Shown piece after piece: positions 1,026 through 1,259 of a stretch of 6,699 bases of DNA. Under the pieces are notes generated by a model. The model searched no databases and was not told the origin of the DNA. It saw only the letters and a program-made list of their open reading frames with translations. This DNA comes from a virus (taxonomy: Duplodnaviria; Heunggongvirae; Uroviricota; Caudoviricetes): positions 1-6,699 of the IMG/VR virus record IMGVR_UViG_2671180417_000006, one strand, 5' to 3'. Each line of letters starts with the position of its first letter. The first letter of the stretch is position 1. A program made the position numbers and the translations under genes.

Positions 1026-1064
1026 AAAGAATAAAAAAATCCCGCAGAGTTGCGGAACTGCGGG
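1024..1064 (-). terminator. Intrinsic-terminator-like hairpin oriented for the minus strand, overlapping the I stop codon
   Basis: Inverted repeat CCCGCAG (1041-1047) / CTGCGGG (1058-1064) with a 10-nt loop. On the minus strand the hairpin is followed by A-UUUUUUU-AUUC-UUUUU (complement of the + strand A-run 1024-1040). No T-run follows it on the + strand. An alternative shorter pairing CCGCA (1042-1046) / TGCGG (1051-1055) also exists. Confidence 0.4.
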
Positions 1065-1195
1065 AGCGTTACGAAGATTAAGTGTAAGGAATTATTCTTA
1101 TGTCACGACAAAAACATTAACACAGAGAAATTATTAGCACCACAGTCAGTTTGTGAAAATGTGAAGATATTCAGAAGTTTTATTCAGTGATGATA
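1065..1195. ncRNA. Candidate small-RNA locus in the I-J intergenic island; strand and ends unresolved
   Basis: A 131-bp visibly AT-rich non-coding segment between two oppositely oriented terminator-like hairpins. There is no ORF with a plausible start/RBS (longest are a 6-codon MSRQKH at 1100-1120 and spill-over of frames running out of I or antisense J). It contains a C/A-rich tract (cgacaaaaacattaacacagag, about 1105-1127). No convincing sigma70 -35/-10 pair was identified by eye. Confidence 0.22.
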
Positions 1196-1228
1196 CAGGC
1201 ATCCTCAGGGATGCCTGTTGTTTTTGTG
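1196..1228 (+). terminator. Rho-independent terminator-like hairpin directly upstream of J
   Basis: Perfect 9-bp inverted repeat CAGGCATCC (1196-1204) / GGATGCCTG (1209-1217) with a 4-nt loop TCAG, followed by TTGTTTTTGTG (1218-1228). Confidence 0.5.
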
Positions 1229-1259
1229 CGTAACAGTTATCACAGTAAAGGGTGAGACA

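Follow-up and report, generated by a model that had tools for sequence, protein, structure and literature searches.

The 234-bp spacer between the tail genes I and J is, very probably, a small inserted cassette (moron) in a lambdoid E. coli prophage, carrying a stand-alone small-RNA gene of the PasB/EcOnc22-24 family. The gene occupies the left two thirds of this I-J island, at about 1033-1183 on the minus strand of the window, by which we mean the whole 6699-nucleotide stretch of DNA that was analyzed. The small-RNA gene is real and its family is already published. A preliminary description of the window had suspected a small RNA in the island; this was correct, although both strand and kinship differ from what it proposed. 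We expect the RNA to be transcribed against the tail genes from its own sigma-70 promoter, starting near position 1123, and to stop at an intrinsic terminator whose U-run reaches 1033, which would give an RNA of 76-91 nt. By homology with studied relatives, it would be produced in the lysogen at a time when the late operon is not expressed, would be stabilized by Hfq, and would act in trans on host core-genome mRNAs and on those of other mobile elements. Pairing would proceed through a single-stranded CUCCUU...AAUCUUC block (1093-1073) and perhaps also through the conserved 5' end. The homology, anatomy, strand and conservation of promoter and terminator come from the present analysis; expression, size, Hfq dependence and partners are taken from papers on relatives.

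The window covers the K-I-J-lom-stf segment of the prophage, and the nearest complete genomes match it at 96-97% identity across its entire length. The open reading frame (ORF) list contains K at 19-447 (Pfam NlpC/P60), the plus-strand tail assembly gene I on the left flank of the island at 345-1025 (Pfam Lambda_tail_I, E = 6.5e-16) and the plus-strand tail tip attachment gene J on its right flank at 1260-4751 (seven Pfam GpJ domains). The lom gene follows at 4822-5421, and the tail-fibre gene stf begins at 5486. K and I overlap by 103 nt, and the J-lom and lom-stf spacers measure 70 bp and 64 bp, all in agreement with the preliminary description. That description had also set the length of the I-J spacer against about 60 bp in lambda. 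The lambda spacer is indeed 60 bp (15445-15504), and the possibility that lambda carries an equally long spacer is thereby removed. The GC content is 38.0% in the island, 31.5% between its hairpins and 56-59% in genes I and J. There is no credible ORF in the island: all candidates begin with TTG or GTG and cross a hairpin, and we rejected them as coding for these reasons. Indels between relatives of the island are not multiples of three. The island had thus been rightly characterized as AT-rich and noncoding. A terminator scan of positions 800-1500 reported three terminator-like sites versus 0.6 expected by chance; the opposed hairpins that had been claimed for the two island edges were both recovered by the scan, and both fold well.

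We collected the island from 115 IMG/VR instances via a conserved 24-mer and from 80 loci via the J protein. From these loci we extracted 62 unique modules and 47 distinct transcripts. A covariance model was built from 20 members, including PasB and EcOnc22, and every allele with the 5' half of the window RNA was left out. The model matched the window at 1123-1033 on the minus strand with 77.7 bits (E = 1.1e-13), over positions 1-94 of 94, and the second-best match in the window had E = 0.5. It recovers the E2348/69 and Sakai copies and has no match in lambda. This match, to a family whose relatives have been detected experimentally, bears out the idea of a small RNA that ends at the left, minus-oriented terminator. 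The alignment of I-J junctions, which had been proposed as a check, revealed conservation of the promoter, start, seed block and terminator across many diverged copies; in the set of 47 distinct transcripts, the conserved elements are the -10, the seed block, the terminator and the 5' GCGUUA. At the sequence level, the window RNA shares 72% identity with PasB and 76% with EcOnc22, and the longest exact word common to this RNA and the 83-nt PasB is 15 nt. We also ran the Rfam search that the preliminary description had suggested. No family matched, and the window gave only chance-level matches (plastid, snoRNA and Bacteroides families) at the gathering threshold and at E up to 10. We found no Rfam model for the PasB family.

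PasB (pathogenicity-associated small RNA B) was described in EPEC O127:H6 E2348/69, where it lies in prophage PP6 at 1466343-1466261 on the minus strand (83 nt), between two plus-strand PP6 genes (Pearl Mizrahi et al. 2021, PMC8550237, table S6). It was detected there by northern blot (probe AATCCCGCAGTGATCGCGGAGCT, table S6) and by RIL-seq, in which it ranked 15 by interaction number and had 37 trans partners from the core and accessory genome. Its level was higher in the "non-activating" growth condition and fell in an hfq deletion (log2 -6.8; PMC8550237, tables S2 and S6). We found that the E2348/69 genes flanking PasB are those for tail assembly protein I and gpJ, and that the E2348/69 I-J spacer can be aligned end to end with the window spacer (89% column identity). 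In window coordinates, the PasB ends correspond to 1108->1033. The published 5' end of PasB, which was estimated from read coverage and blot size (PMC8550237), is about 15 nt downstream of the predicted window start.

Further relatives come from EHEC. EcOnc22/23/24 were reported as three homologous Hfq-CRAC peaks in Sp15, Sp14 and Sp11 of O157:H7 Sakai, with an RNA of about 85 nt on northern blots that was destabilized in an hfq deletion (Tree et al. 2014, PMC4104026, table S2). When Hfq-crosslinking small-RNA sets were consulted, as had been recommended in the preliminary description, all three peaks fell in Sakai I-J spacers (NC_002695.2), on the strand antisense to the tail genes. Coordinates shift by about +140 nt from NC_002695.1 to NC_002695.2, as anchored by the Rfam positions of AgvB and Esr41, and after this shift the peaks lie inside the covariance-model matches (88.9 bits). 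Taken raw, the EcOnc22-24 coordinates would be antisense of the plus-strand hairpin at the right of the spacer, a placement that we rejected: the AgvB and Esr41 anchors, which establish the shift of about +140 nt, and the probe sequence both speak against it. At all three loci, the initial 23 nt of the northern probe used for EcOnc22/23/24 in common (GGGAGAGAACGATGAAGATTAAC...) match the tail-sense strand beside the hairpin; the EcOnc22/23/24 RNA is therefore antisense to the tail genes, as is PasB. Judged by these sequence comparisons, EcOnc22-24 and PasB are one family under two names, given in 2014 and 2021. This link is not stated in the papers that we examined: PMC8550237 table S6 gives no EHEC homologue for PasB, and "EcOnc" is absent from a 2026 preprint on PasB (bioRxiv 10.64898/2026.05.13.724894).

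These relatives also bear on whether the island is simply a non-functional spacer, that is, decayed DNA with chance hairpins. The AT-richness would fit such an origin, as would the finding that no feature is annotated over the full island among the matches listed. Decay would, however, have had to leave promoter, start, seed block and terminator conserved across the many diverged copies, to produce relatives that were detected experimentally, with published northern blots of PasB and EcOnc22/23/24, and to yield a covariance-model E of 1e-13. We give this explanation almost no credence and retain the small-RNA gene.

Read along the minus strand, the module consists of the box TTCTGA-N6-TCACATTT (1178-1157), the -35, the -10, GCGUUA, a U-run, a variable stretch, the AACUCCUUnnnGUUAAUCUUC block, and the terminator stem with U7. 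The covariance model and the alignment to the E2348/69 spacer predict a primary transcript of 91 nt at 1033-1123. The length would be 76 nt if the mapped 5' end of PasB is used, and published relatives are about 83-85 nt long. The predicted sigma-70-type promoter (minus strand, 1130-1157) has 10/12 matches in the promoter scan, with the -35 TTCACA (1157-1152), a 16-nt spacer and the -10 AATAAT (1135-1130), which is TATAAT in most relatives. A conserved G(C/U)GUUA (GCGUUA in the family, GUGUUA in the window) begins at 1123, 7 nt past the -10, and from the sequence we predict that the small RNA starts near this position. The -10 and the GCGTTA block are kept across 40-62 unique modules.

Directly upstream of the small-RNA promoter is a CRP-consensus-like box, AAATGTGA-AGATAT-TCAGAAGT (1157-1178, listed with no strand). 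It is the sole match to AAATGTGAN6TCACATTT with ≤ 3 mismatches in the window, where 0.01 would be expected by chance. Its center lies at about -44.5 from the putative start, compared with the canonical -41.5. The box is present in every module recovered, a frequency to be read with the fact that retrieval itself required the box.

The intrinsic terminator of the small RNA (minus strand, 1033-1064) emerges from the terminator scan, from folding and from the family consensus helix. CCCGCAG (1064-1058) pairs with CUGCGGG (1047-1041) around a 10-nt loop, followed by one A and U7 (1039-1033). The scan itself called 1059->1038 on the minus strand plus a T-run; the conserved stem 1064-1058/1047-1041 is more stable. 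The 3' end of the small RNA falls 8 nt past the stop codon of I. According to RNAalifold, the terminator helix is the sole consensus helix of the family and everything outside it is predicted to be single-stranded. The terminator stem is nearly invariant and therefore offers minimal covariation support; its one compensatory change, from G-C to A-U, occurs in a single copy (L204). Hfq-dependent base-pairing small RNAs are usually built in this way, with a long unstructured 5' part, a terminator hairpin and a U tail.

Near-invariant alignment columns, predicted to be unpaired, define a conserved single-stranded block at 1073-1093 on the minus strand. Its sequence is AAUUCCUUACACUUAAUCUUC in the window and AACUCCUUnnnGUUAAUCUUC in the family consensus, and it carries the anti-Shine-Dalgarno-like motif CUCCUU. 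We infer that this block (1093-1073) is likely the seed. The seed of PasB has been placed just upstream of the terminator (Zhu et al. 2026, bioRxiv 10.64898/2026.05.13.724894). The complementarity of CUCCUU to the Shine-Dalgarno sequence suggests that the small RNA occludes ribosome-binding sites.

The position of the gene raises the question of whether it acts mainly in cis, as an antisense RNA that pairs with the I-J part of the late transcript, or through promoter collision, and so tunes J expression or phage yield at induction. It is convergent with the late operon, about 90 nt of the late transcript are fully complementary to it, and it keeps a single position in hundreds of prophages. 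Yet it lies outside any coding sequence and outside the J ribosome-binding site, which is about 140 nt off, and sodC-carrying spacers keep the RNA body with its own promoter replaced. Together with the 37 trans partners of PasB found by RIL-seq in EPEC (PMC8550237), these observations make a predominantly cis role unlikely, and we favor a small RNA that would act in trans.

On the plus strand, the sequence opposite the 5' end of the small RNA is a C/A tract at 1105-1127, in which 19 of 23 letters are C or A by direct reading. The preliminary description had suggested that this tract is of the kind that pairs with GU-rich seed regions such as GcvB R1, and had pointed to anti-small-RNAs such as AgvB; on a plus-strand transcript, the tract would then act as an AgvB-like sponge. 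The composition of the tract (83% C or A) and the occurrence of AgvB-type sponges in such prophages are in keeping with that proposal, but the pairing energies are not. With the GcvB R1 sequence of MG1655, the tract scored -16.9 kcal/mol (z = -0.78), and 21% of shuffles were equally good. This score is median-like, as 51% of all 41-nt segments of the 6.7-kb window were equal or better, whereas the AgvB control reached -21.8 kcal/mol (z = -2.05). Duplexes with GcvB R1 were no better than shuffles both for the plus-strand tract and for the minus-strand RNA. The RNA detected in relatives is on the opposite strand, and AgvB is located at PR' and not at I-J. We therefore regard pairing of the tract with GcvB R1 as exceedingly improbable and discard it in favor of the minus-strand gene.

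The right-hand part of the island contains a plus-strand terminator-like hairpin at 1195-1228, found by the scan and folding at -18.3 kcal/mol (z = -4.6 versus shuffles). It has a 10-bp stem (1195-1218) with six G-C pairs and a T-run to 1228 (tail TGTTTTTGTG), and it ends 31 nt before the J start. With a GC-rich stem-loop and a U-run directly after it, the hairpin has the form of an intrinsic terminator. The candidate terminator that had been described at the right edge is plus-oriented and forms a strong terminator-like structure, with a stem of 10 bp instead of the 9 bp claimed, but it is not the end of the small RNA. In an alignment of 12 variants, 98% of cells are paired; the one covarying pair (U-A/U-G/C-G) is no better than in shuffles.

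The two parts of the island are separable. Genome searches recover the left 158 bp (1026-1183) and the right 76 bp separately, and the query positions matched are 1-158, 85-234 and 130-234. Roughly half of the loci found via the 24-mer have unrelated DNA in place of the right part, downstream of the same small-RNA module. The replacement DNA (L017-type spacers) has its own plus hairpin, AACCCCGGTATC...GATACCGGGGTT, followed by a T-rich tail. By our own reading of NC_001416, lambda has a plus hairpin at 15467-15484, AACCGCC-TGCG-GGCGGTT followed by TTTGTCATTT. The sequence before the hairpin is AATGTTTTAT in lambda and AAGTTTTAT in the window. Lambda has its plus hairpin in spite of lacking a small-RNA module; plus hairpins ahead of J therefore recur at the junction with or without the small RNA. 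The one at 1195-1228 belongs to the I-J junction as a feature of its own, outside the small-RNA gene, and the lambda hairpin is its positional equivalent. The window hairpin is probably an intercistronic terminator or an RNA-stabilizing stem that is read through by Q-modified polymerase, and such read-through is established for lambda late transcription. We found no paper on the function of the lambda I-J hairpin. Automatic measurement of I-J spacers also returned apparent "empty sites" of 66-69 bp, which on inspection were ORF-finder artefacts and were rejected. Among the spacers examined, lambda itself is the only true empty site.

A strongly terminator-like hairpin facing the small-RNA gene had suggested a convergent sense/antisense pair, in which a second small RNA of about 50 nt starts within the island on the plus strand and ends at 1195-1228. 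Such pairs, as well as small RNAs of 51-60 nt, are known from the PR' moron site in these prophages. The promoter scan of positions 800-1500 nevertheless found no plus-strand promoter-like site, and the Hfq peaks tabulated for the three Sakai I-J spacers are all antisense to the tail genes (Tree 2014, PMC4104026). The unrelated plus hairpins at the same place in lambda, without the module, and in L017-type spacers point to a role in the late operon, and the right module is swapped behind the same small-RNA module in roughly half of the 24-mer loci. We consider a plus-strand partner very unlikely, and the claim of a convergent pair was not supported.

The island was found in 1380 out of 5426 complete E. 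coli genomes, at a median of two places per genome and at up to eight, and in 149 phage records, which without exception belong to Escherichia, "Enterobacteria" or Stx-converting phages. Strains with the window-type allele include O111 11128 and O39 F8704-2. A contig scan with the pattern AAAAAATCCCGCAGN{0,25}CTGCGGG returned generic terminators in unrelated phyla only and is uninformative on taxonomic range. Some loci have tandem modules, two copies in L186 and four in L202, each with a remnant of the 3' end of gene I, and the 5' half diverges between module copies. It is possible, and we propose this tentatively, that the I-J junction is a cassette site for a modular, tandem-duplicating small-RNA unit whose 5' halves diversify, so that arrays with different target ranges would be switched on by cAMP-CRP in the absence of glucose. 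We observed the arrays and the box; CRP control and target divergence are conjecture. If this proposal holds, the window allele would regulate other mRNAs than PasB does.

A previous survey of PasB distribution used BLAST with a word size of 28 on bacterial genomes (Zhu, Shabalina and Storz 2026, bioRxiv 10.64898/2026.05.13.724894). As the longest shared word is 15 nt, such a search with PasB would miss the window allele, and word-size-28 surveys seeded with the E2348/69 sequence probably undercount the family. In the literature that we examined, three points have not been stated before: that EcOnc22-24 are the PasB family, that divergent alleles are missed by word-size-28 BLAST, and that the family forms tandem arrays and shares a CRP-like box. 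The result mostly tidies known facts about a widespread locus, which about one in four complete E. coli genomes carry, often in several copies. The window adds no new kind of element and will not surprise a specialist. Thousands of loci would gain an annotation from an Rfam model of the family, and the conserved blocks, the tandem arrays and the CRP-like box are leads on the function of the family.

We compared the element with other small RNAs and junctions of such prophages. AgvB and AsxR (RF02702, RF02703) are likewise a prophage-encoded, Hfq-binding family of the same EHEC prophages. They lie 3' of PR' at the moron site as convergent pairs of 51-60 nt, with a conserved 3' region of about 42 nt (Tree 2014, PMC4104026). 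The window element, in contrast, is at I-J and not at PR', and it has neither the 3' region and length of AgvB/AsxR nor a 5' region complementary to GcvB R1. RF02702 and RF02703 gave no match in the window even at E up to 10, and the same models do recover AgvB in Sakai. The kinship with prophage Hfq-binding small RNAs that had been suspected therefore stands in part: the element belongs to the EHEC/EPEC Hfq-binding set but is not AgvB/AsxR.

HnrS (EcOnc10/11/12) is a multicopy prophage small RNA of 66 nt that represses hha (Poudyal et al. 2026, PMC13502914) and serves as an example of a worked-out function for small RNAs of this class. Like the window element, it is a multicopy Hfq-associated small RNA of the late region of EHEC/EPEC prophages, but it lies in other prophages, at other coordinates and not at I-J. 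We rejected identity with HnrS since it corresponds to EcOnc10-12, at a different locus.

As in lambda, the I-J junction of the window has a plus-strand GC-rich stem and a T-run about 20-30 nt upstream of J, after A(A/T)GTTTTAT, although the stem sequences are unrelated (AACCGCC/GGCGGTT in lambda and ACAGGCATCC/GGATGCCTGT in the window).

The closest systems are the members of the family itself. EcOnc22/23/24, which are Hfq-bound, differ from the window RNA in their 5' region (GCAUUACUUUUUUGAUGCCUGAAAAAU...) and share its I-J position and strand. PasB also differs in the 5' half (GUCGUGACAUAAGAAUAAUUCC in the window versus GCCCGAGUAACAAAAACAACUCC) and in the terminator loop, which leaves the two transcripts only 72% identical. 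What the window element has in common with PasB and EcOnc22-24, besides homology of sequence and structure to members that were detected experimentally, is the location in the I-J spacer, the orientation antisense to the tail genes, a 3' end a few nucleotides past the I stop, and the CCCGCAG/CUGCGGG stem (1064-1058 with 1047-1041) with U7. With PasB it further shares the promoter region, the upstream box and the CUCCUU...AUCUUC block.

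The spacer between tail genes I and J, in which the PasB/EcOnc22-24 small-RNA gene lies, varies among prophages. In 13 of the 80 J-anchored loci the spacer is of a sodC-carrying type, represented by L129 (350-1200), where it measures 691 bp and carries a reverse-strand gene for Cu,Zn superoxide dismutase (Pfam Sod_Cu, E = 4e-32). A small-RNA body of the type found in the window lies directly downstream of this sodC gene and matches the family covariance model with 60 bits. In the sodC-type spacer other sequence replaces the native -10 and -35 elements of the small RNA, and the breakpoint adjoins the predicted start. 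The small RNA of these prophages might be a product of the sodC 3'-UTR.

The small-RNA module also occurs in tandem. A single I-J spacer holds four copies in L202 (270-1200; model matches at 278-370, 499-593, 723-825 and 952-1042) and two copies in L186 (775-1200). Both the 5' half and the terminator stem have diverged between the copies of these arrays, and the linkers that separate the copies resemble residual 3'-terminal segments of gene I. This resemblance suggests that the arrays arose via unequal recombination between prophages. Copy 3 of L202 and copy 2 of L186, together with the 243-bp spacers of L183 and L188, represent a more distant subfamily at the same I-J site. Its members score only 23-49 bits with the model, carry the block GGUGACUAUUCG and have a different terminator stem (CUCCCGUAAUA...UAUUACGGGAG followed by U8).

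The module between the small-RNA unit and J is variable as well. Many loci, including L017 (~7920-8110), have an alternative right module of ~190 bp that is not similar to the right module of the window (1184-1259). The L017-type module contributes a plus-strand hairpin of its own, AACCCCGGTATC-TGCT-GATACCGGGGTT, followed by TCTCTTT.

Elsewhere in the window, a strong terminator-like hairpin on the plus strand (5448-5479; AGCCCGCC...GGCGGGCT, then TTTTTGT) lies directly 3' of lom and is probably the ordinary lom terminator. The weaker minus-strand hairpin in the J-lom spacer (4791-4765) is probably a chance or antisense feature. Inside J, a promoter-like site on the minus strand (3631-3604) comprises TTCACA, 16 nt and AATAAT, the same hexamers as in the small-RNA promoter. 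Such sites are not in excess across the window, where we counted 4 versus 3.2 expected from shuffles.

Placement of EcOnc22-24 in the Sakai genome depends on the assembly version. The coordinates in table S2 of Tree 2014 refer to NC_002695.1 and are ~140 nt below those of NC_002695.2, an offset anchored on AgvB and Esr41 and valid around 1.42 and 1.94 Mb at the least. Left uncorrected, they put EcOnc22-24 onto the wrong spacer feature in the three Sakai loci (L122, L123 and L124).

Immediately upstream of the small-RNA promoter is a CRP-like box (1157-1178; AAATGTGA-AGATAT-TCAGAAGT), which resembles the consensus AAATGTGAN6TCACATTT. When up to 3 mismatches are allowed, no other site in the window matches this consensus, the chance expectation being 0.01 matches. 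All 62 unique modules contain the box, although retrieval of the modules itself required it. Its centre lies at about -44.5 relative to the putative start, whereas the canonical position is -41.5. In work on PasB, the family member of EPEC E2348/69, the non-activating medium was reportedly LB and the activating medium DMEM with glucose. The level of PasB was higher in the 'non-activating' growth condition (PMC8550237). If the media were as reported, this condition dependence of PasB would fit control of the small RNA by cAMP-CRP.
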